Of a stretch of DNA of 64,000 nucleotides, positions 49,339-63,426 are shown piece after piece. Each line of letters starts with the position of its first letter. Within the stretch, counting starts at the first letter, position 1. The DNA comes from an uncultured Candidatus Izemoplasmatales bacterium (GTDB lineage: Bacteria; Bacillota_I; Bacilli_A; Izemoplasmatales; Hujiaoplasmataceae), in assembly GCA_964483655.1 (NCBI GenBank), contig CAZABW010000003.1:12252-76251 (forward strand). The letters run 5' to 3'. Under the pieces are notes generated by a model. It did no database searches. It saw nothing but the letters and a program-made list of their open reading frames with translations, and had not been told where the DNA came from. Both the position numbers and the translations under genes were made by a program.

Positions 49339-49844
49339 AATTAATACCCTATAAAGGCATCTTACCGAAAATTGATCCCAGCGTTCTCATTCTAAACGGT
49401 AGTTTTATTAGTGGGGATGTCACGATTGAAAAAAACGTCAATATCTGGTTTAACGTATCAATCCGTGGGGATATGGACCGTATTACGATTGGAGAAAACA
49501 CGAATATTCAAGATAACGCGGTCATTCACGTCAATACCAATACCCCAACCGTGATTGGAAAAAATGTTACCGTCGGCCATAATGCCATCATCCATGGCGC
49601 AACAGTGGGTGATAACTGTTTAATTGGGATGGGTTCGATTTTACTCGACCATAGTATCGTTGAAGAAGGCGCTATGGTTGGCGCAGGGTGTTTGGTTCCG
49701 CCTGGAAAAGTCGTCCCAAAAGGGATGCTCGCGATTGGGAATCCAATGAAGATAGTTAGACCTTTAACCGAGGCTGAATTGCAAGCGAATCAACGGAATA
49801 TCCAAAGTTATTTGGATTTAGCGAGGGAATATGAAAAAACGTAA
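49335..49844 (+). CDS. gamma-carbonic-anhydrase-like left-handed beta-helix protein (YrdA/PaaY type)
   Basis: Hexapeptide repeats and NIWFNVSIRGD...IGENTNIQDNAVIH...VGHNAIIHG. ATG at 49335 overlaps the previous stop. Confidence 0.75.
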   Translation: MKLIPYKGILPKIDPSVLILNGSFISGDVTIEKNVNIWFNVSIRGDMDRITIGENTNIQDNAVIHVNTNTPTVIGKNVTVGHNAIIHGATVGDNCLIGMGSILLDHSIVEEGAMVGAGCLVPPGKVVPKGMLAIGNPMKIVRPLTEAELQANQRNIQSYLDLAREYEKT

Positions 49845-50457
49845 AATCGAACAAACTCCTCTCGAAAAGGAGTTAATTCGTTATGTCGAAGCACTCCATG
49901 CGGAAGACACTTCTGGGCATGATTTTTTCCACATTCAACGCGTGGTCCAAATGGCAAAACATCTTGCGAAGAAGCAGAACATTGATAATAAAAAATTATT
50001 GCTTTTATCGTATCTTCATGATGTCGATGATCCGAAGATGGTGGGGAATAGTCAAGGATCCTCACGGGCTTTGGACATTATGAAAACATGCAAAATCGAA
50101 GAAGTACTTGCCTTTAATATTCAATCTGAAATATCAAAGATGAGTTATAGCGCCCATCAAGCAGGCTCACGCGTAGAAAGTATCGAAGCGAAGATTGTTC
50201 AGGATAGTGACCGCTTAGATGCAATTGGCGCAATTGGGATTGCTAGAGCTTTTACGTATGGGGGGAGTAAACGCCGCGTGATGTTCGAAGGTAGTTTCAA
50301 TGATGAAACTTCCATTGCTCATTTCTACCGGAAGTTGTTACATCTTGAACAATTAATGAATACCAAACAAGCCAAAAAAATCGCTAAAAAGCGAACGAAA
50401 TTGATGAGAAAGTATTTAAAAGCATTTCATGAAGAGTGGTCGATTATTACCAAGTAA
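49831..50457 (+). CDS. HD-domain phosphohydrolase
   Basis: H...HD...D motifs (FFHIQRV, LHDVDD, DSDRLDA); 208 aa. Confidence 0.7.
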   Translation: MKKRKIEQTPLEKELIRYVEALHAEDTSGHDFFHIQRVVQMAKHLAKKQNIDNKKLLLLSYLHDVDDPKMVGNSQGSSRALDIMKTCKIEEVLAFNIQSEISKMSYSAHQAGSRVESIEAKIVQDSDRLDAIGAIGIARAFTYGGSKRRVMFEGSFNDETSIAHFYRKLLHLEQLMNTKQAKKIAKKRTKLMRKYLKAFHEEWSIITK

Positions 50458-50504
50458 TCCTCCCTTTTTTTTATTTTTCGAATCAAAAACGCGCTTTTGC
50501 TGGC

Positions 50505-50533
50505 TTGACAACGCTTTCATAATCCCTTATAAT
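50505..50533 (+). promoter_or_regulatory. consensus sigma-A promoter of the lysine fermentation operon
   Basis: TTGACA (50505-50510), 17-nt spacer, TATAAT (50528-50533). Confidence 0.7.
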
Positions 50534-50544
50534 GGAGGTACAAT

Positions 50545-50712
50545 TTCATGTTTCACAGAGGAGCGATTACTCTGGTAGATCATTGATGATAATAAGCTGA
50601 ACCTTAGAGGCAATGATTCAAGGAGGGTAGTCGCCGAAAGAGAAAAATCGTTCATATTTTTGCTCTTGGTGACGGTGCGAAGCACCCCCACTGCCATTTC
50701 GATGGAGCGCTG
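50545..50712 (+). promoter_or_regulatory. lysine riboswitch (L-box) aptamer-like leader
   Basis: Contains AGAGGAGCG (50557-50565), AAGCTGAA, GGGTAGTCGCCGAAAG, CACTGCCA and GGAGCGC, in the same order as the conserved L-box blocks. A 10-bp helix pairs 50563-50572 with 50625-50634. Local hairpins GGTGC-gaa-GCACC and CCAT-ttcg-ATGG. Confidence 0.7.
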
Positions 50713-50742
50713 TTATATTCAATTGAATATAGCAGTTTTTTT
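50710..50742 (+). terminator. leader terminator (riboswitch expression platform)
   Basis: CTGTTATATTC-aatt-GAATATAGCAG (one G-U) followed by TTTTTTT, 20 nt before the first ORF. Confidence 0.75.
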
Positions 50743-50762
50743 ATTATAAAAAGGAGGATCGT

Positions 50763-51191
50763 ATGTCATTTTACCCCATTGAAGCGATTGTATTGAACCA
50801 AAGCGGAACCGTCACGAAAACATTTTCTGAAGCGGATGTGATTGAGTTCGCTCGAGTTACCGGGGATCAAAACCCCGTTCACCTTCATGAAGAATACGCC
50901 AAAACCACGATGTTTCAACGTCGGATTGTTCATGGTTTTTTTGTTGGTAGTTTGTTCTCTCAAATTATCGGCACCAATTTCCCTGGTCTTGGGACAGTAT
51001 ATACGTTCCAAAGTATGAAATTTACTCGTCCTGTTTATTTGGACGATACCATTACAGCTACTGTCACTGCGAAAGAGATTATTCTAGAGAAGAATCGTGT
51101 CTTGTTAGAATGTGTTGCGAAAAACCAACACGGTGAGATTGTCATCATTGGTGAAGCGACAGTTATGCCACCAAAAGGAGTTCAACAATGA
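50763..51191 (+). CDS. MaoC-like (R)-specific enoyl-CoA hydratase/dehydratase (hot-dog fold)
   Basis: 142 aa with TGDQNPVHL and IVHG motifs. Confidence 0.75.
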   Translation: MSFYPIEAIVLNQSGTVTKTFSEADVIEFARVTGDQNPVHLHEEYAKTTMFQRRIVHGFFVGSLFSQIIGTNFPGLGTVYTFQSMKFTRPVYLDDTITATVTAKEIILEKNRVLLECVAKNQHGEIVIIGEATVMPPKGVQQ

Positions 51192-51835
51192 AGCACATCG
51201 ATTGGAATACATGTAAAGGACTTTTTAAAGACGGACAATCCATCTTAATCGGTGGTTTTTTAACCAATGGAACTCCAGAAGCATTGATTGATTGCCTACT
51301 AGAAAGCAATGTGAAACATTTAACCATCATCGCCAATGATGGGGGATACGAACATCAAGGAATTGGTAAACTGATTCAAAATGGCCAGGTAGACCATTTG
51401 ATGGCTTCCCATATTGGAACCAATCCTTTAGCAGGAAAACTGATGCAAGAAGGATCTCTCAAGATTACGCTCATCCCTCAAGGAACTCTGATCGAGCAAA
51501 TTCGTGCTGGGGGAGCGGGATTAGGGGGCATATTAACCCCTACGGGTATTCATACTATTGTCGAAGAGGGCAAACAAGTTATCCATGTCAATGGACAAGA
51601 TTATTTATTAGAGTTGCCCATTAAGGCAGATCTTGCCTTCATTGGGGGCTGTATCGCCGATCAGTATGGCAATTTAACCTATTTTGCTTCGCAACGCAAC
51701 TTTAATCCGATTTTAGCACTAGCCGCTGAAACGGTGATTGCATCACCGCTTTCAAGAGTTGATACCCATGACCCTGAATGTGTCATTACCCCTCATGTCT
51801 TAGTCGATTATTTGTTGGAGGTTCATCATGGATGA
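51188..51835 (+). CDS. atoD: 3-oxoacid/acetoacetate CoA-transferase subunit A
   Basis: 215 aa with ILIGGF...GTPEALI at the N-terminus. ATGA overlap; paired with a B subunit. Confidence 0.8.
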
Positions 51836-52466
51836 GAAAACGATTATTGCGAAACGGATTGCGAGAGAACTTCATGATGGCAACTTAGTCAATTTAGGTA
51901 TTGGCATCCCAACCCTTGTTGCGGATTATATTGAAAGCCACCAACATATTACCTTTCAAGCTGAAAATGGAATATTAGGGTTAGGACCCATCCAAGAAAG
52001 TCCGACAGGAATGGTCAATGCTGGAGGAATCCCAGCGAGTATCTTACCAGGTGGAGCCTTTATTGATTCTGCGATGTCGTTTTCTTTGATTCGCGGTGGT
52101 CACATTGATGTCACAGTTCTTGGTGCGCTCGAAGTGGACTCAGAAGGCTCGATTGCATCGTGGATTATTCCTGGAAAAAAAGTCCCCGGTATGGGGGGAG
52201 CCATGGATTTAGTCGTTGGCGCGAAGAAAGTGATTATCGCAATGACCCACACGAATAATGGCAAGCCAAAAATCCTAAAGAAATGCCAACTACCTTTAAC
52301 CGCCTATAAACAAGCCAACTTGATTGTAACTGAAATGGCTGTGATCGAGGTAGCTGAAACCGGATTGATCTTAAGAGAAGTCCATCCAGATAAAACAATC
52401 GAAGAAGTTGTCCAATTAACAGGCGCAACATTAGATATATCGAATGTAGGAGTGATGAATGTATGA
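51828..52466 (+). CDS. atoA: 3-oxoacid/acetoacetate CoA-transferase subunit B
   Basis: 212 aa with NLGIGIPT and the catalytic-Glu motif AENG. Confidence 0.8.
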
Positions 52467-52849
52467 ATGAAGTCGTAAAAATCCGGTTACGGATGTCTCA
52501 AGCAGATGCCCATTATGGTGGTGATTTAGTCGATGGAGCCCGGATTCTAGGGTTATTTGGGGATGTCGCTACCGAGCTTTTAATTCGCTTGGATGGCGAT
52601 GAAGGGTTATTTCGGGCCTATGAAATGGTCGAGTTTCTAGCTCCTGTTTATGCGGGAGACTATCTAGAAGTAGAAGGAGAGATTACCCATATTGGCAATA
52701 CCTCCCGTAAAATGAGTTTTATCGCAAAAAAAGTCATTGCGAAACGAAATGATATCTCTGTTTCTGCGGCGGATTTTCTAACTGAACCCATCCTGGTAGC
52801 GAAAGCCATTGGTACGTGTGTAACGCCCAAGGATGTCAAACGCAAATGA
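52463..52849 (+). CDS. kal: 3-aminobutyryl-CoA ammonia-lyase (hot-dog fold)
   Basis: 128 aa; size and position directly upstream of kce/kdd/kamA match the lysine fermentation kal gene. Confidence 0.65.
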
Positions 52850-53673
52850 TGGAGAAATTAATCATTACTTGTGCCATCACCGGGGCAGAAGTGACCAAAG
52901 AACAAAACCCAGCTGTTCCTTATACCAAAGAAGAAATTGCCTTGGCAGCGTATGAAGCTGCTCAAGCGGGAGCGGCGATTATCCATTTACATGCTCGTGA
53001 AGAGGACGGAACTCCTACCCAAAGAAAAGAACGATACCAGGAGTTTATCGAAGCGATTCGAAAGCGATGTGGTGATGTCATCATCCAAGTTTCAACTGGC
53101 GGAGCCGTTGGGATGAGTCGGGATGAACGGCTTGATGTTCTGAAGCTCAATCCGGAGATGGCAACTTTAGATTGTGGCACTTTAAACTTTGGGGGCGATG
53201 ATATTTTTGTCAACACTGAAAATGATATTATCTACTTCGCTGATATGATGCAAAAACAAGGGATTCACTATGAGTGTGAATGCTTTGAAAAAGGACATGT
53301 GGATACCGTCTTACGATTACAAAAATGGGGTCATATTACCCAACCCCTACGCTTTAGTTTTGTTTTAGGCGTACGCGGTGGGATGAGTGGCGAAAGCCGG
53401 GATTTCCATTTCTTACGTGAATCCATTCCTAGTGATGCGACCTTTAGTGTGGCAGGGATTGGTAAATATGAATTCTCACTAGCCGAAGAATCGATTCGTA
53501 GTGGGGGTCATGTTCGTGTTGGGCTAGAAGATAATCTCTTTATTGAAAAGGGTGTTCTAGCGAAAAGCAATGCCCAGTTGGTTCAAAAAGTCGTCGCAAT
53601 CGCTTCCAAGTATCATCGTGAGATTGCTTCTGTGGAAGAAGCAAGAGCCATATTAAAGTTGAGGAGGAATTAA
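52846..53673 (+). CDS. kce: 3-keto-5-aminohexanoate cleavage enzyme (BKACE/DUF849 family)
   Basis: N-terminal [23 protein letters not shown] and [11 protein letters not shown], typical of BKACE TIM barrels. ATGATG junction with kal. Confidence 0.8.
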
Positions 53674-53674
53674 G

Positions 53675-54718
53675 ATGCAAGGTTGTCGCTATGGAACCCA
53701 TCGGGTGATGGAACCCAAAGGAGTATTGCCTCAAGCTGCCCAAAAAATTGATTCCACGATGACGATTTATGATAATGAACTCCTCATCGATGTAGAGACT
53801 TTAAATATTGATAGTGCTTCTTTTACCCAACTAAAACAAGCTTGTGGAAACTCGATAGAAGCATTAAAAGAAATGATTATGGAGATTGTCTCTAGTCGCG
53901 GGAAAATGCAAAATCCCGTTACCGGTAGTGGCGGGATGTTGCTAGGGAAAATCGCTCAAATTGGACGAAATTTCAAAACTGATCTCCAACTTGGAGATGA
54001 AATCGCAACACTTGTTTCCTTATCCCTGACCCCGTTAAAAATCGATGAAATACTGGCCATTGATTTATCCAACGATCAAGTTCGGATTAAGGGCCAAGCC
54101 ATTCTTTTCGAAAGTGGAATTTTCGCAAAAATTCCTCAAGATTTAGATCGTTATGTTGTCTTAAGCGCTTTAGACGTAGCTGGAGCTGCGATGCAAACCA
54201 AGCACCTTGTAAAATCAGGTGATTCGGTCTTAATCCTTGGAGCGGCAGGGAAGAGTGGGTTACTTTGTTCCTTACAAGCGAAGCTCTCAGCAGGTCCCAA
54301 GGGCAATGTTATCGGGATTATTTATGAAGAAAAACAACGAGTTGAACTACAGACGCTTCAAGCGTGTGACCATATTATCGTCGCCGATGCACGAAATCCG
54401 ATTGCGATTTTAGAGGCAGTAAAAGCCGTAAATCACGGTGAAAAAGTTGATGTAACAATCAACGTTGTTAATGTACCTAATACCGAAATGTCATCCATCT
54501 TACCGACTAAAGATAGCGGGAAAGTCTATTTCTTCAGTATGGCAACCTCGTTTCAAAAAGCTGCTCTAGGTGCAGAAGGGATCGCCTCAGAAGCCACGTT
54601 ATTGATTGGAAATGGCTATTCCAGTGGACACAGTGAATGGACACTAAATTTACTACGCAATCATCCTACGCTTCTTAAAATCTTTCAAGCGCGTTATGGA
54701 AAGGAGTCTTCCAAATGA
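53675..54718 (+). CDS. kdd: L-erythro-3,5-diaminohexanoate dehydrogenase
   Basis: 347 aa. N-terminal MQGCRYGTHRVMEPKGVLPQ resembles known Kdd N-termini; Rossmann ILGAAGKSG; operon position. Confidence 0.75.
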   Translation: MQGCRYGTHRVMEPKGVLPQAAQKIDSTMTIYDNELLIDVETLNIDSASFTQLKQACGNSIEALKEMIMEIVSSRGKMQNPVTGSGGMLLGKIAQIGRNFKTDLQLGDEIATLVSLSLTPLKIDEILAIDLSNDQVRIKGQAILFESGIFAKIPQDLDRYVVLSALDVAGAAMQTKHLVKSGDSVLILGAAGKSGLLCSLQAKLSAGPKGNVIGIIYEEKQRVELQTLQACDHIIVADARNPIAILEAVKAVNHGEKVDVTINVVNVPNTEMSSILPTKDSGKVYFFSMATSFQKAALGAEGIASEATLLIGNGYSSGHSEWTLNLLRNHPTLLKIFQARYGKESSK

Positions 54719-55971
54719 TTATCACCAACGATTCTTATTTAGAACGAAAGAAACATTTATATCCTCATGTTACAGACGAACAATGGTCTTCTTGGCACTG
54801 GCAAGTCAAGAACCGACTTCAAACCGTGGAGGAACTGGAAGCCGTTCTCCCACTAACTGTAGAACAAAAGCAACATATCAAAGGGGTCTTAGGAAAATTC
54901 CGGATGGCGATTACTCCTTATTATCTTTCCTTAATTGATCCAAATAATCCTCACTGCCCCATCCGAAAACAAGCCGTTCCCGGTTTTGAGGAGTTAGTGA
55001 TTGGGAAACATGATATGACCGATCCCTTAGCAGAAGATATTGATAGTCCTGTACCTGGATTAACCCATCGTTATCCAGACCGGGTCTTATTCTTAATTAC
55101 CGATATGTGCTCGATGTATTGTCGCCATTGTACGAGAAGACGCTTTGCGGGACAAATGGATCATGCGATGCCGGAATCACGAATTGATCAAGCAATCGCT
55201 TATATTCGTGCCAATCCTCAAATCCGCGATGTATTACTGTCGGGGGGCGATGCGTTATTAGTGAGTGACGCCTTTTTAGAAAGTATCATCCAAAAACTGC
55301 GCCAAATCGATCACGTGGAAGTGATTCGAATTGGTACGAGAACCCCGGTTGTCTTACCGCAGCGGATTACCCCAGAACTGGTCAACATGTTAAAGAAATA
55401 TCATCCTATTTGGGTGAATACTCATTTTAATCATCCCGACGAGATTACCAAAGAAAGCAAAGCAGCGATTGATTTATTAGCGGACGCTGGCATTCCTTTA
55501 GGCAATCAATCGGTTTTACTAGCAGGTATCAATGACTGCGTCCATGTGATGCGTAAACTCGTTACCAAACTAGCGCACATTCGTGTTCGTCCTTATTACA
55601 TCTACCAATGTGACTTATCGATGGGAATCGAACATTTCCGAACGCCTGTTTCCAAAGGAATCGAAATCATTGAGGGACTTCGTGGCCATGTCAGTGGATA
55701 TTGTGTCCCAACCTTTGTGGTGGACGCTCCTGGCGGGGGAGGTAAAATCCCGGTTATGCCCAATTACCTTATTTCACAAGCGCCTGGAAAAACGATTTTA
55801 AGAAACTTTGAAGGCGTTATCGCTACCTATTATGAACCTACTCATTATGAAGAAACTTGCCAATGCGAAGCTTGCCAAGGGAAAGACGCTAACTTATCTG
55901 TTCCTCTCGGAGGCGAACATCATTCTTCACGATTAGAAAGAAGGGAAGAACTATCCAACAAGCATTCTTAG
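54715..55971 (+). CDS. kamA: L-lysine 2,3-aminomutase (radical SAM, PLP)
   Basis: CSMYCRHCTRRR cluster motif, LSGGDAL, PYYIYQCD; 418 aa. Confidence 0.9.
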   Translation: MIITNDSYLERKKHLYPHVTDEQWSSWHWQVKNRLQTVEELEAVLPLTVEQKQHIKGVLGKFRMAITPYYLSLIDPNNPHCPIRKQAVPGFEELVIGKHDMTDPLAEDIDSPVPGLTHRYPDRVLFLITDMCSMYCRHCTRRRFAGQMDHAMPESRIDQAIAYIRANPQIRDVLLSGGDALLVSDAFLESIIQKLRQIDHVEVIRIGTRTPVVLPQRITPELVNMLKKYHPIWVNTHFNHPDEITKESKAAIDLLADAGIPLGNQSVLLAGINDCVHVMRKLVTKLAHIRVRPYYIYQCDLSMGIEHFRTPVSKGIEIIEGLRGHVSGYCVPTFVVDAPGGGGKIPVMPNYLISQAPGKTILRNFEGVIATYYEPTHYEETCQCEACQGKDANLSVPLGGEHHSSRLERREELSNKHS

Positions 55972-55991
55972 ACCAAATCAAACCCTATCAT

Positions 55992-56987
55992 GTGATCTCG
56001 ATTGTCGGAAATGCGAAAAACGCAGGTAAGACAACGGTTTTAAACACGCTTATTGAAGCCTATCAACATGACCCGATTGCGATAACATCGATTGGTTTGG
56101 ATGGGGAAATGCTTGATCAAATCACACGTCTACCGAAACCGCGTATTACGGTTTACCCAGGAATGCTCGTCGCCACCGCAAAGGATACCTTGCGTCAAGC
56201 GACCGCGGATTACGATGTGATTGAAACGTTAGATATCTCCTCTGCCCTTGGGCCAATTGTGATTGTCTTGGTTCGAAGTCTTGGTCATATGATTTGCGCA
56301 GGACCCTCTCAAATACGACAATTAAAAAAACTCGTATGTCGATTGAAACAGATGAATTTAACCAAGATTTTCATAGATGGCGCGTTTGCACGCCAACAAT
56401 TAAGTCGACTTGGCGATGCGACCATTCTTTGTGTAGGAGCTTCGAGTGCTTACCAAGATGATCAAGTCATTCAAAAATCATTGACCCTGATACACAAATT
56501 TTCACTTCCGGGGTTGCCCATGAAGTATCAAAACTTACCCCCTGTGGAAGAGGTTGTTGGACTCGATGAAGGGGGAAATATTCTTGATTTACCGTTTGAC
56601 TCAACGATTTCGATTCAAGTGGAAACGGTAAAGAAAATTCCGGTTCATACCATCAAAGCAATCTATTTTCCTCATGCTGTGAGTGAATCCTTTTGTCAAG
56701 CATGGTTGAGTCAAAAGAAACTTCATACGATTGCTTGGATGATTCAAAGTCCATCTCACTTGATTTGTTCGGAGCGGACCTTTGAAAAACTCCGTCAGAT
56801 TGACCAATCGATTTTCTGTCAATACCCTGTCCATGTTGTTTGTGTCTGTTATAATCCCTTTCGCCCTAATGGCGAAGCAATGAACTCTCAGTGGTTTTAT
56901 CAGGAACTACGTAGTCAAATCGAGTATCCCGTCTATAATGTCTTACATCCCGAGGTATCTTATGAATCAATTGACTCTCTCTCATGA
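55992..56987 (+). CDS. uncharacterised protein with an N-terminal P-loop-like motif
   Basis: GTG start, 331 aa. Residues 5-14 are VGNAKNAGKT (Walker-A-like, MobB-style). Its 3' end overlaps the kamD start by 26 nt. Confidence 0.55.
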   Translation: MISIVGNAKNAGKTTVLNTLIEAYQHDPIAITSIGLDGEMLDQITRLPKPRITVYPGMLVATAKDTLRQATADYDVIETLDISSALGPIVIVLVRSLGHMICAGPSQIRQLKKLVCRLKQMNLTKIFIDGAFARQQLSRLGDATILCVGASSAYQDDQVIQKSLTLIHKFSLPGLPMKYQNLPPVEEVVGLDEGGNILDLPFDSTISIQVETVKKIPVHTIKAIYFPHAVSESFCQAWLSQKKLHTIAWMIQSPSHLICSERTFEKLRQIDQSIFCQYPVHVVCVCYNPFRPNGEAMNSQWFYQELRSQIEYPVYNVLHPEVSYESIDSLS

Positions 56988-58515
56988 ACGCATTCAAGAA
57001 TGTCGGAAACTAGCGAAGAAAATCGCAACCGATGTGCAATATTTTATCGACCAACATACCACGAAAACCGTTGAACGAGCGATTTTGCGGATGCTTGGTG
57101 TCGATGGGGTGGATGCGCAAGAAGTTCCCATTGTGAATCGTTTGGTCGATCACTTAGAAGAACAAGGAAAACTGGCAGATGGGATTTCCATTTGGATAGC
57201 GACTAGGATGAAATCTCAACGAAAAACCTTAGAAGCAGTGGTCCAGGATTTTATCGAACGCGATATCTCGTTCGTGGAAGGGGATCTAATCCCTCAAAGT
57301 GAAGCGATGAACTTGTTACTTCCTTATGTGGATCGTTCGCTAGATACTGTATTACGAAATAAACAAATTCGCCAAGAACAATTAGCAAAGTCCCCTAAAA
57401 AAACTACCGAGCTCTATGTTATTGTCGCAACAGGAAACATCCATGAAGATGTCAAACAAGCCAAGGCCGCTGCAGAAAGTGGCGCTGATATTATCGCTGT
57501 CATTCGGACAACCGGACAATCCCTCCTCGATTATGTTCCCTATGGGCTAACCACCGAAGGGTTTGGAGGAACATATGCAACCCAAGCGAATTTCAAACTC
57601 ATGCGCAAAGCCCTTGATGAAGTAGGAGAAACCTTAGGGCGTTATATCAAACTCGTCAATTATGCTTCGGGATTGTGCATGCCAGAAATCGCCGCAATGG
57701 CTGCTTTGGAACGTCTGGATGTGTTATTAAATGATTCCATGTATGGGATTATTTTCCGTGACATCAATATGAAACGGACCTTCGTAGATCAATTCTTTTC
57801 ACGCCGAATCAATGCGTTTGCTGGGATTATCATAAATACAGGAGAAGATAATTATTTAACAACAGCTGATGCCATTGACGAGGCTCATACGGTGTTAGCT
57901 TCTCAATTTATCAACGAACAATTTGCTTTTTTAGCGAAATTAAAAGAAGAACTGATGGGGTTGGGACATGCTTTCGAAATTGATCCTCATGTGAAAAATG
58001 GCTTTTTATATGAAATTGCTCAGGCGCAAATGGCCCGCCAAATCTTCCCGAAAGCGCCGTTAAAATACATGCCGCCAACCAAGCACATTAACGGAAATAT
58101 CTTCCGTGCTTATCAACAAAACACTTTATTTAATGTCGCAACGCAAATGACCAATCAATCGATTCATTTGTTAGGTATTTTAACCGAAGCCATCCACACG
58201 CCATTTTTAAGCGATCGTCATCTTGCCATTCAAAATGCTAAAATGATTCAAACAACGATGGCAGATTTCGCAGATGAGATCGAGTATAAGCGCGGAGGAA
58301 TCATCGAATCACGAGCGCAAGAAGTGCTTGAAAAAGCGCATGAGTTATTAAAGAATATCGCTAAAGATGGACTTTTCAACAGTTTAGAAAAAGGTGTTTT
58401 TGCGAATGTGAAACGATCTCCTGATGGAGGAAAAGGATTACTGGGAGTGAAGGAAAAAAGTCCACATTACTTCAATGTCATACTGGATCGAATGGAGGCT
58501 TACGATGCTAATTAG
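56962..58515 (+). CDS. kamD: lysine 5,6-aminomutase alpha subunit
   Basis: ~517 aa from the ATG at 56962. The N-terminus (...KLAKKIATDVQYFIDQHTT) resembles C. sticklandii KamD as I recall it; followed by the B12-binding subunit. Confidence 0.8.
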   Translation: MNQLTLSHERIQECRKLAKKIATDVQYFIDQHTTKTVERAILRMLGVDGVDAQEVPIVNRLVDHLEEQGKLADGISIWIATRMKSQRKTLEAVVQDFIERDISFVEGDLIPQSEAMNLLLPYVDRSLDTVLRNKQIRQEQLAKSPKKTTELYVIVATGNIHEDVKQAKAAAESGADIIAVIRTTGQSLLDYVPYGLTTEGFGGTYATQANFKLMRKALDEVGETLGRYIKLVNYASGLCMPEIAAMAALERLDVLLNDSMYGIIFRDINMKRTFVDQFFSRRINAFAGIIINTGEDNYLTTADAIDEAHTVLASQFINEQFAFLAKLKEELMGLGHAFEIDPHVKNGFLYEIAQAQMARQIFPKAPLKYMPPTKHINGNIFRAYQQNTLFNVATQMTNQSIHLLGILTEAIHTPFLSDRHLAIQNAKMIQTTMADFADEIEYKRGGIIESRAQEVLEKAHELLKNIAKDGLFNSLEKGVFANVKRSPDGGKGLLGVKEKSPHYFNVILDRMEAYDAN

Positions 58516-59239
58516 ACCTTATGGAGATACTTTAGATGATGGCAAGATTCAAATCAGTTTTAGCTTGCCATTGGAATTATCAGCTCATTCGATAGAAGTA
58601 GCGAAACAGTATTCGGAACAACTTCAACTTGTGGATGTAAGTATTGTTCATGCGGAATCATTAGGAAAAGGTTTTAGCTTTTACATCGTCTATGGAAGGT
58701 CAACAATCGCCATTGACCCAACCAAGATTACCGTTCAAGACGTGGAAACGACAGCCCTGAGTAAAGAAGAAATTGAACAACTCATTCAAGATAAAATTGG
58801 TCGTGATATCGTTATTATAGGGGCATCTACAGGCTCGGATGCTCATACCGTTGGAATTGATGCAATTATGAATATGAAAGGCTATGCCGGTCATTATGGC
58901 TTGGAACGATACCATCATATCCAAGCGCATAATCTTGGATCCCAAGTTCCAAATGAATGGTTTGTGAAACAAGCCAAAGAGCTTCATGCAGATGTTTTAT
59001 TGGTGAGTCAAACGGTTACCCAAAAAGAAGTTCATATTAAAAATTTAATCGAATTAGTCGAACTGTTAGAAGCCGAAAATATGCGTGATCAAGTCATCTT
59101 GATTTGTGGCGGAGCCCGAATTACCCATGAACTAGCCAAGGAACTTGGGTATGATGCGGGATTTGGACCAGGGAAATTCGCTGAAGATGTCGCTACATTT
59201 GCGGTCATGGAGCTCATTAAGAAGCAATCGAATTCATAG
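58505..59239 (+). CDS. kamE: lysine 5,6-aminomutase beta subunit (cobalamin-binding)
   Basis: RPYGDTLDDGKIQISFSLPL at the N-terminus and the DxHxxG base-off B12 motif (GSDAHTVGIDA). 11-nt overlap with kamD. Confidence 0.85.
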   Translation: MLIRPYGDTLDDGKIQISFSLPLELSAHSIEVAKQYSEQLQLVDVSIVHAESLGKGFSFYIVYGRSTIAIDPTKITVQDVETTALSKEEIEQLIQDKIGRDIVIIGASTGSDAHTVGIDAIMNMKGYAGHYGLERYHHIQAHNLGSQVPNEWFVKQAKELHADVLLVSQTVTQKEVHIKNLIELVELLEAENMRDQVILICGGARITHELAKELGYDAGFGPGKFAEDVATFAVMELIKKQSNS

Positions 59240-59279
59240 TTCGATGGATGGATTTTGTACCTTATTCACCGAATGACAG

Positions 59280-59308
59280 AAAAAAAACACGCAAAGTCGT
59301 GTTTTTTT
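59280..59308 (+). terminator. intrinsic terminator of the lysine operon
   Basis: AAAAAAACACG-caaagt-CGTGTTTTTTT. Confidence 0.85.
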
Positions 59309-59347
59309 CTTCGAGTTATCTTTTCAATCTCGATAGATGGGTATAGA

Positions 59348-59857
59348 ATGAAGAAGGATGTGATAATGATGAAACGACTCGTTCTTTGTTTGGGGTTGCT
59401 TTTGGTTTTATTCGGTTGTCAAACAACAACAACAACAACAACTGCTTCCTTAGAACCGACCTCCACTGGCATGTATGCAATCTATCGACAACAAGTTTAC
59501 CTTCATTTCAAAGATTTTAGTTTGGATGAGTTTACTTTGGATGTTTTTTGGGCTGAAGATTATGAAACGATTGTCATCGATTCACAGTTAGAAGCGTTGT
59601 GTCAAGCCACTTTAAATCCCTTCGTTACCGACTGGGACAGTTTACAATTTATGCCAGGGATGGCAGAGTTTGATGTGAAAGCTCGTTGGGTGTGGACCAA
59701 AGACAATCAAGTCGCTACAATCGAATATCAATTATCTTTTCAAGATATCTACTACCTTGTCATTAGCTATCAAAATCAGGACCTCATCACACATAGCGCT
59801 ACCTTAACAGGGGACATGATCCCTCGAGATTTATTATCTACCCTGTTGCCTGAATAG
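59348..59857 (+). CDS. lipoprotein of unknown function
   Basis: Lipobox LVLFGC followed by a poly-Thr linker. The start must lie after the terminator; ATG at 59348, 59366 or 59369 are all possible. Confidence 0.55.
   Translation: MKKDVIMMKRLVLCLGLLLVLFGCQTTTTTTTASLEPTSTGMYAIYRQQVYLHFKDFSLDEFTLDVFWAEDYETIVIDSQLEALCQATLNPFVTDWDSLQFMPGMAEFDVKARWVWTKDNQVATIEYQLSFQDIYYLVISYQNQDLITHSATLTGDMIPRDLLSTLLPE
59422..59442 (+). repeat. (AAC)7 trinucleotide microsatellite encoding the poly-Thr linker
   Basis: Seven perfect AAC units, read in frame as ACA/ACT Thr codons immediately after the lipobox Cys-Gln. Confidence 0.9.
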
Positions 59858-59884
59858 GTATCATAAAGTTCATTCAAGGAGGGG

Positions 59885-61195
59885 ATGTCATTGAGGCACT
59901 CTCGAAAAGAACGGTTTGAACAAACACAGCGTGCACGCTGGCTTTCGAATCTATTTACTGTGTCCATGAGCGTTGTTGTCGTCGCCGTTGTGTTATTACT
60001 TCCTGAAGCCAATGCCTATGCCCAGCTCATGGATGTGTTTGCTGATCAAAACTCGATTTACTACCAAGTCTATTCGGTTCAACTCCCTAGTGAAGCTAAA
60101 GTGCCTTCAGTCCGTTTAGTAGTGGAAAGTCAGTTTGAGACAATCACCGAAGAACTTCCCGATGGGGACGTTCAAGGACGAATATCTAATTTGCGAGAGA
60201 ACACCCAATATCAGGTAAAACTCGTCGGCAATAAGGGGTTTGGCGATTATCTCATGGATCAAATGACCATTCGTACCATCGCAAGTCCTCAAGTCCGGTT
60301 GTTTTTAGAAACGAGTTCACTCCCAGATTCAGAAGAAGTATGGGTAAGTGGTCATTTCATTGGAGAATTGCCCACCGATGGTACGTTGTCTCTTTGGATG
60401 GCTGTGGGATATGGCAATCAGGTTCCTTACAGAGACGATTATGAGCCGATTGACTTTACGGACTCCGCCTTTGAACTCTCTCCAATGTATGCTTATGGCC
60501 AAACCTTATTTTTTCTGCTAGACTGGACCAATTCTGAAAATGTGACAACCATCTTGGTTCAAAATACGTTGCGATTAGTTCAAGAATCGATGCACTCTTT
60601 GTATTTGAGTGCACTAGGACCCCATCATCTTGGTGTTCATGCATATCCTCCTTCTGATTTAGGGAGTCATGTTTCCCTTGAACTTCGTGTTCTTGAAAAA
60701 AGCCGGATCCTTCATAAAAAAGTGATTTCGTTCTCATCACAGGACCACTATGAATCCCCTGACCCCCATTTCTTTTTCGGTCTAAAACAAAATACTCTTT
60801 ATATTCTGGAACTATGGGCAAGGTATTATGACGCTATTTTAAATCGTCAGATTGAGAAGCGAATCGATCAAATCGAAGTATTTACCCCTCCCCTCTTTCA
60901 GATTCAAATTCTTGAAGTCTTTCAAGAGGGAGCGAAATGGGAGGTTATTGTCAATGACCCTTCTTCAGTGTTACAGGAAACTCAAGTCATGATCCACTTT
61001 CTTGAAACCAATCAACACTATTTTGCCTCCCTTGTATTGCAAGAACAAGTGGATGGAACGATGAAAGCCGTTATTCAGGTTCCAAACGCATCGGTAGGTG
61101 CGTATGAAATGCAGATTGTCGCTACGATAGCCCTTGAAAATGAAGTCAGTTATTTCATGGTTGAACTAACCAGGAAGGAAGGAATTTACGAATGA
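59885..61195 (+). CDS. single-pass membrane protein with about four extracellular beta-sandwich-like modules, function unknown
   Basis: Basic cytoplasmic N-terminus and one TM helix (VSMSVVVVAVVLLLP). Then ~95-aa segments with FN3-like endings (NTQYQVKLVG, NTLYILELWA). RBS aaggagggg. Confidence 0.55.
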   Translation: MSLRHSRKERFEQTQRARWLSNLFTVSMSVVVVAVVLLLPEANAYAQLMDVFADQNSIYYQVYSVQLPSEAKVPSVRLVVESQFETITEELPDGDVQGRISNLRENTQYQVKLVGNKGFGDYLMDQMTIRTIASPQVRLFLETSSLPDSEEVWVSGHFIGELPTDGTLSLWMAVGYGNQVPYRDDYEPIDFTDSAFELSPMYAYGQTLFFLLDWTNSENVTTILVQNTLRLVQESMHSLYLSALGPHHLGVHAYPPSDLGSHVSLELRVLEKSRILHKKVISFSSQDHYESPDPHFFFGLKQNTLYILELWARYYDAILNRQIEKRIDQIEVFTPPLFQIQILEVFQEGAKWEVIVNDPSSVLQETQVMIHFLETNQHYFASLVLQEQVDGTMKAVIQVPNASVGAYEMQIVATIALENEVSYFMVELTRKEGIYE

Positions 61196-62264: not shown

Positions 62265-62804
62265 ATGAAAAACGAACCCCTAATTCGAAATATTTCCACG
62301 ACGACCGGAGATAAAGGCACCACCCAAAATTATTCTTCTGAAACCCTGAAGAAAACTGATTTGTTATTTGAAGCGCTCGGTGCAATGGATGAGTTATCCA
62401 GCCATTTAGGATTGTGTTATCACTATACGCAAGAACTTGATTTGATGCAAATTCAACGAATCTTACAAACGATTAACTCCTTACTGGCTACAAATCCAAA
62501 AACCGACGCTTCTCGATATGAAAAACTAACGAAAGTAACAGAAGAAGATATTGCTTGGCTCGAGTCCTTAGGTGAAATGATGCTTCAAAAAAAACCTCTC
62601 GAACCTCGGTTTGTTTTGCCTGGTAGTGAATCGACACTTCCCGGAGCCTATGTTGATGTAGCGAGAGCGGTGTGTCGTCGCTGTGAGCGACAAGTGATTC
62701 GATTTCGCGATCAAGCAGAACGTGAGGATTTACATAAACCACTCATCTTCTTAAATCGTTGTTCGGATTATCTCTTTTTACTCGCTCGTTCATTCTTAGA
62801 ATAA
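62265..62804 (+). CDS. pduO: PduO-type ATP:cob(I)alamin adenosyltransferase
   Basis: TTTGDKGTT near the N-terminus, ALGAMDELSSHLG and LPG motifs; 179 aa. Confidence 0.85.
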   Translation: MKNEPLIRNISTTTGDKGTTQNYSSETLKKTDLLFEALGAMDELSSHLGLCYHYTQELDLMQIQRILQTINSLLATNPKTDASRYEKLTKVTEEDIAWLESLGEMMLQKKPLEPRFVLPGSESTLPGAYVDVARAVCRRCERQVIRFRDQAEREDLHKPLIFLNRCSDYLFLLARSFLE

Positions 62805-62812
62805 TAATCTTT

Positions 62813-62854
62813 GAACCGTCTTCATCTCTTTCGATGGAAGATGGTTCTTTTTTT
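62813..62854 (+). terminator. intrinsic terminator
   Basis: GAACCGTCTTCATC / GATGGAAGATGGTTC stem (one bulge, one G-U) followed by TTTTTTT. Confidence 0.75.
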
Positions 62855-62952
62855 AAATCGTCTCTGAAATGAATCGAATCAAGCGAAACGGTGGTATCTT
62901 TTACTATAGTAAAGTGGTATAATACTTTTTTAGTGGGTCTGTGAAATAGTCT

Positions 62953-62981
62953 TTGAAAGCCAAAATCCGCTGTGTTATAAT
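62953..62981 (+). promoter_or_regulatory. sigma-A promoter of the glutamate mutase operon
   Basis: TTGAAA (62953-62958), 17-nt spacer, TGt-TATAAT (62973-62981). Confidence 0.65.
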
Positions 62982-63021
62982 ATTATTATAAAAACGCTTA
63001 CAAACAAAGAGGTAGCTTATA

Positions 63022-63426
63022 TTGAAATCAATTGTAATCGGCGTCATTGGAGCCGATGTTCACGCAGTAGGAAACAAGATTATTGAATATACGTTAAATA
63101 ATGCCGGCTATAATGTCATTAACATCGGCGTGCTTTCATCTCAAGAAGATTTCATCAATGCGGCCATCGAAACCAATGCCGATTTAATCATGGTTTCTTC
63201 GCTTTATGGTCACGGTGAAATCGACTGTCGAGGCATGCGCGATAAATGTGTGGAAGCCGGCATTCCCAATATATTACTCTATGTTGGTGGGAATATTGTC
63301 GTTGGAAAACAAGATTTTGATGAAGTTCGGAAACGCTTTTTTGCGATGGGATTTAACCGCGTTTACGCCCCAGGAACCAACATTGATCAGGCTTTAGCTG
63401 ACATTCGTACGGACTTAGGAGAGTAG
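63022..63426 (+). CDS. glmS: glutamate mutase (methylaspartate mutase) small, cobalamin-binding subunit
   Basis: TTG start after aaagagg. 134 aa with [11 protein letters not shown] (DxHxxG) and [13 protein letters not shown]; close to clostridial GlmS/MutS as I recall it. Confidence 0.9.

Follow-up and report, generated by a model that had tools for sequence, protein, structure and literature searches.

A predicted lysine-inducible riboswitch, with a terminator overlapping P1, upstream of a lysine fermentation operon in an uncultured anaerobe

The window analysed here, meaning the whole 64 kb stretch of DNA at its full length, contains an intergenic leader that separates a phosphohydrolase gene from the first gene of a long catabolic operon. 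The transcription and translation signals of this leader are the following.

50458-50765, + strand: intergenic leader, between the HD-type phosphohydrolase gene (49831-50457) and the MaoC-type hydratase gene (50763-51191)
50505-50533, + strand: sigma-70-type promoter, TTGACA-17 nt-TATAAT, 12/12 match to the consensus
50709-50736, + strand: intrinsic terminator hairpin from the terminator scan, 12 pairs including an outer G.U, loop AAUU at 50721-50724
50736-50742, + strand: terminator U-tract of seven U (sequence and terminator scan)
50750-50765, + strand: ribosome-binding site AAAGGAGG (50750-50757) and ATG (50763), from the sequence

A perfect TTGACA-17-TATAAT promoter occurs as a single copy in the 64 kb window, where 0.03 copies would be expected by chance. 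It is conserved in two syntenic relatives obtained from exact-protein look-ups (L083 and L084), in which the whole interval from promoter to ATG is almost invariant, with changes located in loops, and the spacer further upstream diverges. From the promoter position we infer a transcription start near 50540. An earlier interpretation made from the letters of the DNA, hereafter the sequence-only reading, had described a 230-nucleotide leader after a consensus promoter; the promoter stands, but the leader measures about 223 nucleotides when counted from this start. The intrinsic terminator is placed between the aptamer described below and the start codon (50709-50736, then U7). Its hairpin, which comprises only three G-C pairs, has a folding energy of -13.3 kcal/mol when taken alone, and it is present in the unconstrained minimum-free-energy fold of the leader. 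The ribosome-binding site is unpaired in both of the leader conformers considered below.

The operon follows this leader on the same strand.

50763-51191, + strand: MaoC-type (R)-specific enoyl-CoA hydratase, first gene (Pfam PF01575, E 2.1e-21)
51188-52466, + strand: CoA-transferase subunits A (51188-51835) and B (51828-52466) (Pfam PF01144; NCBIfam TIGR02429, TIGR02428)
52463-52849, + strand: kal, 3-aminobutyryl-CoA ammonia-lyase (NF052388, 188.5 bits, cut-off 160)
52816-53673, + strand: kce, 3-keto-5-aminohexanoate cleavage enzyme (NF052387, 409.1 bits, cut-off 382)
53675-54718, + strand: kdd, 3,5-diaminohexanoate dehydrogenase (NF052381, 254.9 bits, cut-off 200)
54715-55971, + strand: kamA, lysine 2,3-aminomutase (TIGR03820, 622.5 bits, cut-off 525.4)
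55992-56987, + strand: kamB, reactivase subunit (NF052386, 258.5 bits, cut-off 210)
56938-58515, + strand: kamD, lysine 5,6-aminomutase alpha subunit (NF052384, 808.2 bits, cut-off 600)
58475-59239, + strand: kamE, lysine 5,6-aminomutase beta subunit (NF052385, 369.3 bits, cut-off 280)

The claim that the leader controls lysine catabolism is supported by seven enzymes, Kal, Kce, Kdd, KamA, KamB, KamD and KamE, all of which exceed their NCBIfam equivalog cut-offs, and by the tight packing of the genes from 50763 to 59239, which overlap or sit at most 20 nucleotides apart. Judged by these matches, the operon covers the 3,5-diaminohexanoate route of lysine fermentation completely, and a catabolic operon of this kind is expected to be induced by its substrate. 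The MaoC-type hydratase does not belong to the enzymes usually listed for lysine fermentation. We found it as the first gene after the riboswitch here and in 11 other lineages (L051, L073 and L087-L096), down to 42% identity; this conserved lead position of a gene from outside the usual list suggests a role with crotonyl-CoA or 3-hydroxybutyryl-CoA.

Two ORFs directly after kamE (within 59255-61195) encode a lipoprotein-like product, with a signal peptide ending in LFGC, and a protein of 436 amino acids with a single N-terminal hydrophobic anchor; neither has a match in Pfam or NCBIfam. The next gene, overlapping by 4 nucleotides, encodes an MscS-like channel. Further downstream (62265-63426), a gene for the S subunit of methylaspartate (glutamate) mutase opens a glutamate mutase cluster and is accompanied by one for a PduO-type cob(I)yrinic acid a,c-diamide adenosyltransferase. 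Since lysine 5,6-aminomutase also depends on B12, functions of B12-dependent amino-acid fermentation are clustered in this part of the window. A purine-degradation cluster at 13640-35000 includes two xanthine-dehydrogenase-type molybdoenzymes, an adenine deaminase and a dihydropyrimidinase/allantoinase-like amidohydrolase; no purine riboswitch scored above the Rfam threshold anywhere in the 64 kb. The rest of the window carries genes for purine and starch degradation, with a GC content of about 41%, and this predicted gene content fits an anaerobic fermenter.

The leader aligns with the Rfam lysine riboswitch family, RF00168, over the full length of the covariance model (positions 1-182 of 182). 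The cmscan match reaches 64.6 bits, compared to a gathering score of 30, with an E-value of 1.4e-14 over the whole window and of 8.6e-17 when the local region is taken by itself, and it is the sole above-threshold Rfam match in the 64 kb. The elements of the aptamer are listed below.

50548-50720, + strand: lysine riboswitch aptamer (L box / LYS element, RF00168), five-way junction with helices P1-P5 (cmscan)
50557-50565, + strand: L-box block AGAGGAGCG, from the sequence
50594-50601, + strand: L-box block AAGCUGAA, from the sequence
50625-50640, + strand: L-box block GGGUAGUCGCCGAAAG, from the sequence
50689-50696, + strand: L-box block CACUGCCA, from the sequence
50704-50710, + strand: GGAGCGC block, from the sequence
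50563-50572/50625-50634, + strand: P2 helix, 10 bp with two G-U pairs, from the sequence
50694-50705, + strand: P5 hairpin, CCAU-UUCG-AUGG, from the sequence
50598-50602, + strand: L2 loop bases UGAAC, complementary to GUUCA of L3; predicted loop-loop tertiary contact
50650-50654, + strand: L3 loop bases GUUCA, partner of L2

The sequence-only reading had proposed a lysine riboswitch on the basis of ordered L-box blocks, a GGAGCGC motif, a 10-bp helix and a UUCG-capped hairpin. Each of these lies where it had been placed, with the minor correction that the C ending GGAGCGC and the C of the CUGU that follows are one and the same base, 50710. The identification itself is upheld by the significant, full-length match to the covariance model, by the complementarity kept between L2 and L3 and by the covariation of P1-P5 across relatives. 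In the cmscan alignment, the conserved core nucleotides (AGAGG, GCCGAA, CUG-CA and UGGAG-GCU) all match the Rfam consensus. RNAalifold recovered helices P1-P5 from 19 related aptamers, with compensatory changes in 33 of 42 pairs. The predicted L2-L3 duplex has 5 bp and an energy of -4.9 kcal/mol, a value that describes complementarity only; the same complementarity is kept by other sequences in relatives (UGGC/GCCA, AUAAGC/GCUUAU, CGGGU/GCCCG and GGCAA/UUGCC), and this contact is needed for function in the lysC leader of B. subtilis (PMC3082890). As to a possible P2-L4 contact, P4 has the consensus length and L4 retains adenines (GAA, 50679-50681). The P2 internal loop, where loop E and K-turn motifs may lie, reads GGUA/CAAGG against AGUA/GAAAG in the consensus. 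By its sequence, this aptamer is a typical RF00168 member.

The expression platform consists of two strands of P1, the second of which is shared with the terminator.

50553-50558, + strand: P1 5' strand UCACAG, from the covariance-model alignment; its P1 pair CG<->UA covaries across relatives
50710-50715, + strand: shared strand CUGUUA, both P1 3' strand and part of the terminator 5' arm, the switching element (covariance model and terminator pairing)

The pairing of ACAG (50555-50558) with CUGU (50710-50713) that had been claimed earlier is present in the sequence; in the covariance model P1 is longer, at 50553-50558/50710-50715, and contains one C.U mismatch. Its whole 3' strand of six nucleotides falls inside the terminator 5' arm, the terminator beginning 1 nucleotide ahead of it, and P1 and the terminator are not separated by any stretch able to form an antiterminator. 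The two structures are therefore mutually exclusive, so that a P1 stabilised by its ligand must oppose termination.

How are the two states balanced? In nearest-neighbour calculations the leader reaches -60.6 kcal/mol in the terminator conformer and -45.8 kcal/mol with P1 enforced; the former is thus favoured by about 15 kcal/mol and termination is the default state. When 50710-50715 are removed, the terminator drops to a stub of -1.7 kcal/mol, seven nucleotides from the U-tract. P1 itself comprises four contiguous pairs and one more past the C.U mismatch, for a duplex energy of -2.4 kcal/mol. Given such a weak P1 and the advantage of the terminator, read-through would have to depend on stabilisation by the ligand and tertiary contacts and on kinetics, with a decision window of about 27 nucleotides (50715 to 50742). 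Unconstrained ViennaRNA folds of the leader did not reproduce the native P1 register. We attributed the helix that they offered as an alternative (GUUUCA 50550-50555 with UGGAGC 50703-50708) to the limited ability of the energy model to handle a five-way junction. A distal extension of P1 (CAAUU 50541-50545 with AAUUG 50721-50725) is weakened by a loop change in L083 and L084, and we did not count it.

We consider it very probable, from this arrangement of the sequence, that the leader is a lysine riboswitch with ON logic acting on transcription termination; here we infer that lysine binds, that control is kinetic (co-transcriptional) and that the response is positive. By default, the nascent RNA would form the 12-bp hairpin at 50709-50736 followed by U7, and the polymerase would halt about 20 nucleotides before the first gene. 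Abundant lysine would bind the five-way-junction aptamer (50548-50720) during its emergence and stabilise the short P1 (50553-50558 with 50710-50715). P1 would then hold the base of the terminator 5' arm, leaving only a 5-bp A-U-rich stub apart from the U-tract, and the polymerase would read through into the lysine-fermentation operon, from the MaoC hydratase to kamE. Read-through would be decided by a kinetic race over some 27 nucleotides (50715-50742). The net effect would be that lysine, as the substrate, induces its own fermentation to acetate, butyrate and ammonia.

Relatives of the operon were collected in three ways. Kal homologues were aligned and one genome per species was scanned, from which 80 loci were taken for the riboswitch search; the closest Kal among these species-representative genomes has 77% identity. 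A strict regular expression for the core motifs caught just 5 riboswitches in related loci, and an iterated nhmmer profile was used instead. With this profile, we found a lysine riboswitch on the kal strand in 9 of the 80 loci, all confirmed by Rfam (52.8-88.2 bits). A metagenome scan with the first gene of the operon yielded ten loci, every one with a lysine riboswitch just upstream (10/10). The exact-protein look-ups that gave L083 and L084 also gave a more distant relative, L086. Once near-identical copies were removed, 19 independent leaders remained, all Rfam-confirmed. All collected leaders precede Kal-Kce-Kdd-KamA operons, often with the MaoC and CoA-transferase genes first. The fetched loci contained no OFF-type lysine riboswitch, and the contrast with this type is drawn from the literature.

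Outside Fusobacterium, all leaders (17/17) present a hairpin that abuts a U-tract, with energies from -6.5 to -21.5 kcal/mol, and that uses four to six of the six P1 3' nucleotides; in many of them it also spans the conserved GGAGAGC core. The shared strand covaries with both of its partners: where it reads CUGU, its partner is ACAG in P1 and either ACAG or GCAG in the terminator, and where it reads CUAU, both partners are AUAG. Such a pattern would be expected from selection that preserves two alternative pairings for the same strand. The ON-switch geometry put forward by the sequence-only reading thus gains from the P1 strand lying within the terminator arm, from the stub of -1.7 kcal/mol, from the overlap in 17/17 leaders and from this three-way covariation. 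On balance we lean towards the leader being a working natural lysine-inducible antiterminator, and towards the same design being the usual way in which many uncultured anaerobes control lysine fermentation (17/17 outside Fusobacterium). If so, the leader would be well suited as a first model and would offer Gram-positive hosts a compact lysine-inducible part, given its single terminator that fully overlaps P1.

The two Fusobacterium leaders (L058:9707-9960 and L060:9722-9960) are without a simple terminator overlapping P1. About 45 nucleotides downstream of P1 they carry CCUCUAUUUUUU, complementary to the 5' end of the aptamer, AUAAAAAAUAGAGG, which comprises the P1 5' strand and the AGAGG core. 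The complementarity extends over 14-16 bp (-15.8 and -18.0 kcal/mol), and a partial pairing with the UGGAG of the 3' core is also possible. As predicted from these pairings, the Fusobacterium leaders are a different expression platform for the same operon type, one less obvious than that of the window.

Does the switch need the pairing of the shared strand, or merely the proximity of a bound aptamer? An ON switch could act mainly by a steric 'tug-of-war' antitermination at the exit channel of the polymerase, with sequestration of the P1 strand secondary. Ligand-stabilised structures directly upstream of terminators are reported to suppress termination without any sequence overlap, also naturally in Gram-positive ZTP riboswitches (bioRxiv 10.64898/2026.06.17.733018), and the spacer here is zero, P1 alone is very weak, and the overlap in L086 covers only 4 of 6 nucleotides. 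However, the overlap recurs in 17/17 leaders and the shared strand covaries with both partners, which argues that selection acts on the pairing itself and not just on adjacency. We regard a mainly steric mechanism as unlikely. The two mechanisms are not exclusive: suppression by a ligand-bound aptamer abutting the terminator would add to strand sequestration, with the same sign.

The ON switch by strand sequestration that we favour would take lysine as its ligand. Could the aptamer sense a related compound instead, such as beta-lysine or another pathway intermediate, so that the operon would be induced by an intermediate? Beta-lysine is the first product of the pathway. Variant specificity is known from other riboswitch classes, one example being an 8-oxoguanine-sensing variant of guanine riboswitches (PMC10556655). 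Yet the junction nucleotides that are highly conserved in the Rfam consensus all match here, the score stands well above threshold and no variant mark distinguishes this subset in the alignment. Moreover, in the crystal-structure work as cited in PMC3082890, a tight pocket recognises both charged ends of lysine. We hold this alternative to be very improbable.

Least probable of all is a non-switching element (a constitutive attenuator with a relic aptamer), or one repressing through Rho or mRNA decay as in E. coli lysC: a thermodynamically always favoured terminator would suit it, and the E. coli case (PMC10946432) indicates that translation, decay and Rho are all possible routes of action for lysine riboswitches, but a relic would not retain a 64.6-bit full-length match, kissing loops and near-invariance across relatives, a constitutive terminator would render the 9-kb catabolic operon behind it useless, mutually exclusive P1 and terminator cannot yield lysine-promoted termination, and the ribosome-binding site is unpaired in both conformers.

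The lysine-ON reading is not without precedent. Barrick & Breaker 2007 (PMC2258182) state that certain lysine riboswitches have ON logic and bury pieces of terminator stems, and credit this to Rodionov et al. 2003. A 2017 survey (PMC5584792) lists the kal/kce genes of C. sticklandii, F. nucleatum and Thermoanaerobacter as preceded by lysine riboswitches, which it terms positively regulated, citing a review. The early comparative-genomics prediction of activating LYS elements that the sequence-only reading had mentioned can thus be traced, through the credit given in the former article, to Rodionov et al. 2003 (NAR 31:6748), and the survey concurs. The ON design is known, then, as a prediction from genomes made in 2003, and the leader in the window is a clean further example. 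The searchable full-text literature yielded no experiment that tests a natural lysine ON switch; this body of text excludes most subscription journals, which makes the negative result weak evidence.

With the LYS elements before lysine-catabolism genes (kamA, kal-kce) in Thermoanaerobacter tengcongensis, Fusobacterium nucleatum and Clostridium sticklandii, the window element shares the aptamer family, the pathway, the predicted sign and the burial of the terminator stem. It differs from them in that MaoC-type hydratase and CoA-transferase genes lead the operon and in its origin, an uncultured anaerobe with a GC content of about 41%. The lysC leader of B. subtilis resembles it in the five-way junction and, as predicted for the window element, in the L2-L3 contact and the ligand-stabilised P1; the P2-L4 contact of lysC may have a counterpart here (PMC3082890 for the lysC features). 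In lysC, however, P1 serves as an anti-antiterminator: with lysine present, a terminator located separately downstream can form, and the biosynthetic gene is repressed (PMC3082890). A catabolic switch may also be set to respond at a higher lysine level than lysC. The window element is without an antiterminator layer and its P1 competes directly with the terminator, so that the sign is reversed with respect to lysC. The same logic is found in the adenine pbuE/ydhL and glycine gcvT ON riboswitches, where the ligand buries a terminator stem and genes for efflux or degradation are turned on in excess (PMC2258182; PMC11477304). Their aptamers and ligands are unrelated, and the lysine aptamer is much larger, about 170 nucleotides, so that the decision hinges on a long structure folding before the last 27 nucleotides are transcribed.

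An artificial counterpart exists as well. In 2015, Zhou & Zeng (ACS Synth Biol 4:1335) reportedly selected an engineered lysine-ON riboswitch from an OFF switch and so obtained lysine-induced expression from a lysine aptamer. Compared with theirs, the window element is natural and is predicted to act via an intrinsic terminator.

Textbooks treat lysine riboswitches as OFF switches, and these RNAs are also antibiotic targets. In the catabolic ON version, the same aptamer would have been rewired simply by deleting the antiterminator layer. The current picture is unchanged, this design having been predicted two decades ago, and the gain lies in a broader and cleaner comparative case, wider than the species named in the cited papers, with a single terminator wholly overlapping P1 and a three-way covariation. 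The fermentation of lysine to butyrate, acetate and ammonia matters for anaerobes of the gut and mouth. A natural lysine-ON element, once validated, would serve as a lysine biosensor or inducible part, for which only engineered versions are cited, and would also provide a large-aptamer test case for kinetic (co-transcriptional) control.

Some of the related leaders show further variations. In a Lachnospiraceae MAG (L080:9739-9905), the lysine aptamer is followed by three tandem terminators whose 5' arms repeat the P1 3' string CUAUUG, and in an Oscillospiraceae MAG (L054:5684-5830) by two, whose 5' arms repeat the P1 3' string GAAGCGCUAU. These tandems look as if a unit made of the 3' core, the P1 strand and the terminator had been duplicated. 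P1 can hold the first terminator copy only. A 'relay antitermination' along the tandems is unsupported: at equilibrium, the later terminators (second and third) still fold even when P1 is sequestered.

A contig binned with an uncultured Bacteroidales MAG (L051:7169-7342) carries a lysine riboswitch of 70.4 bits with the same terminator overlap and the same order of MaoC, CoA-transferase and Kal genes as the window. The other Bacteroidales kal loci in our set have no riboswitch, and either a binning error or horizontal transfer could account for this one. The L080 locus also has an FMN riboswitch (L080:2855-2991, 104.9 bits), about 6.6 kb upstream of its lysine riboswitch and unrelated to the switch discussed here.
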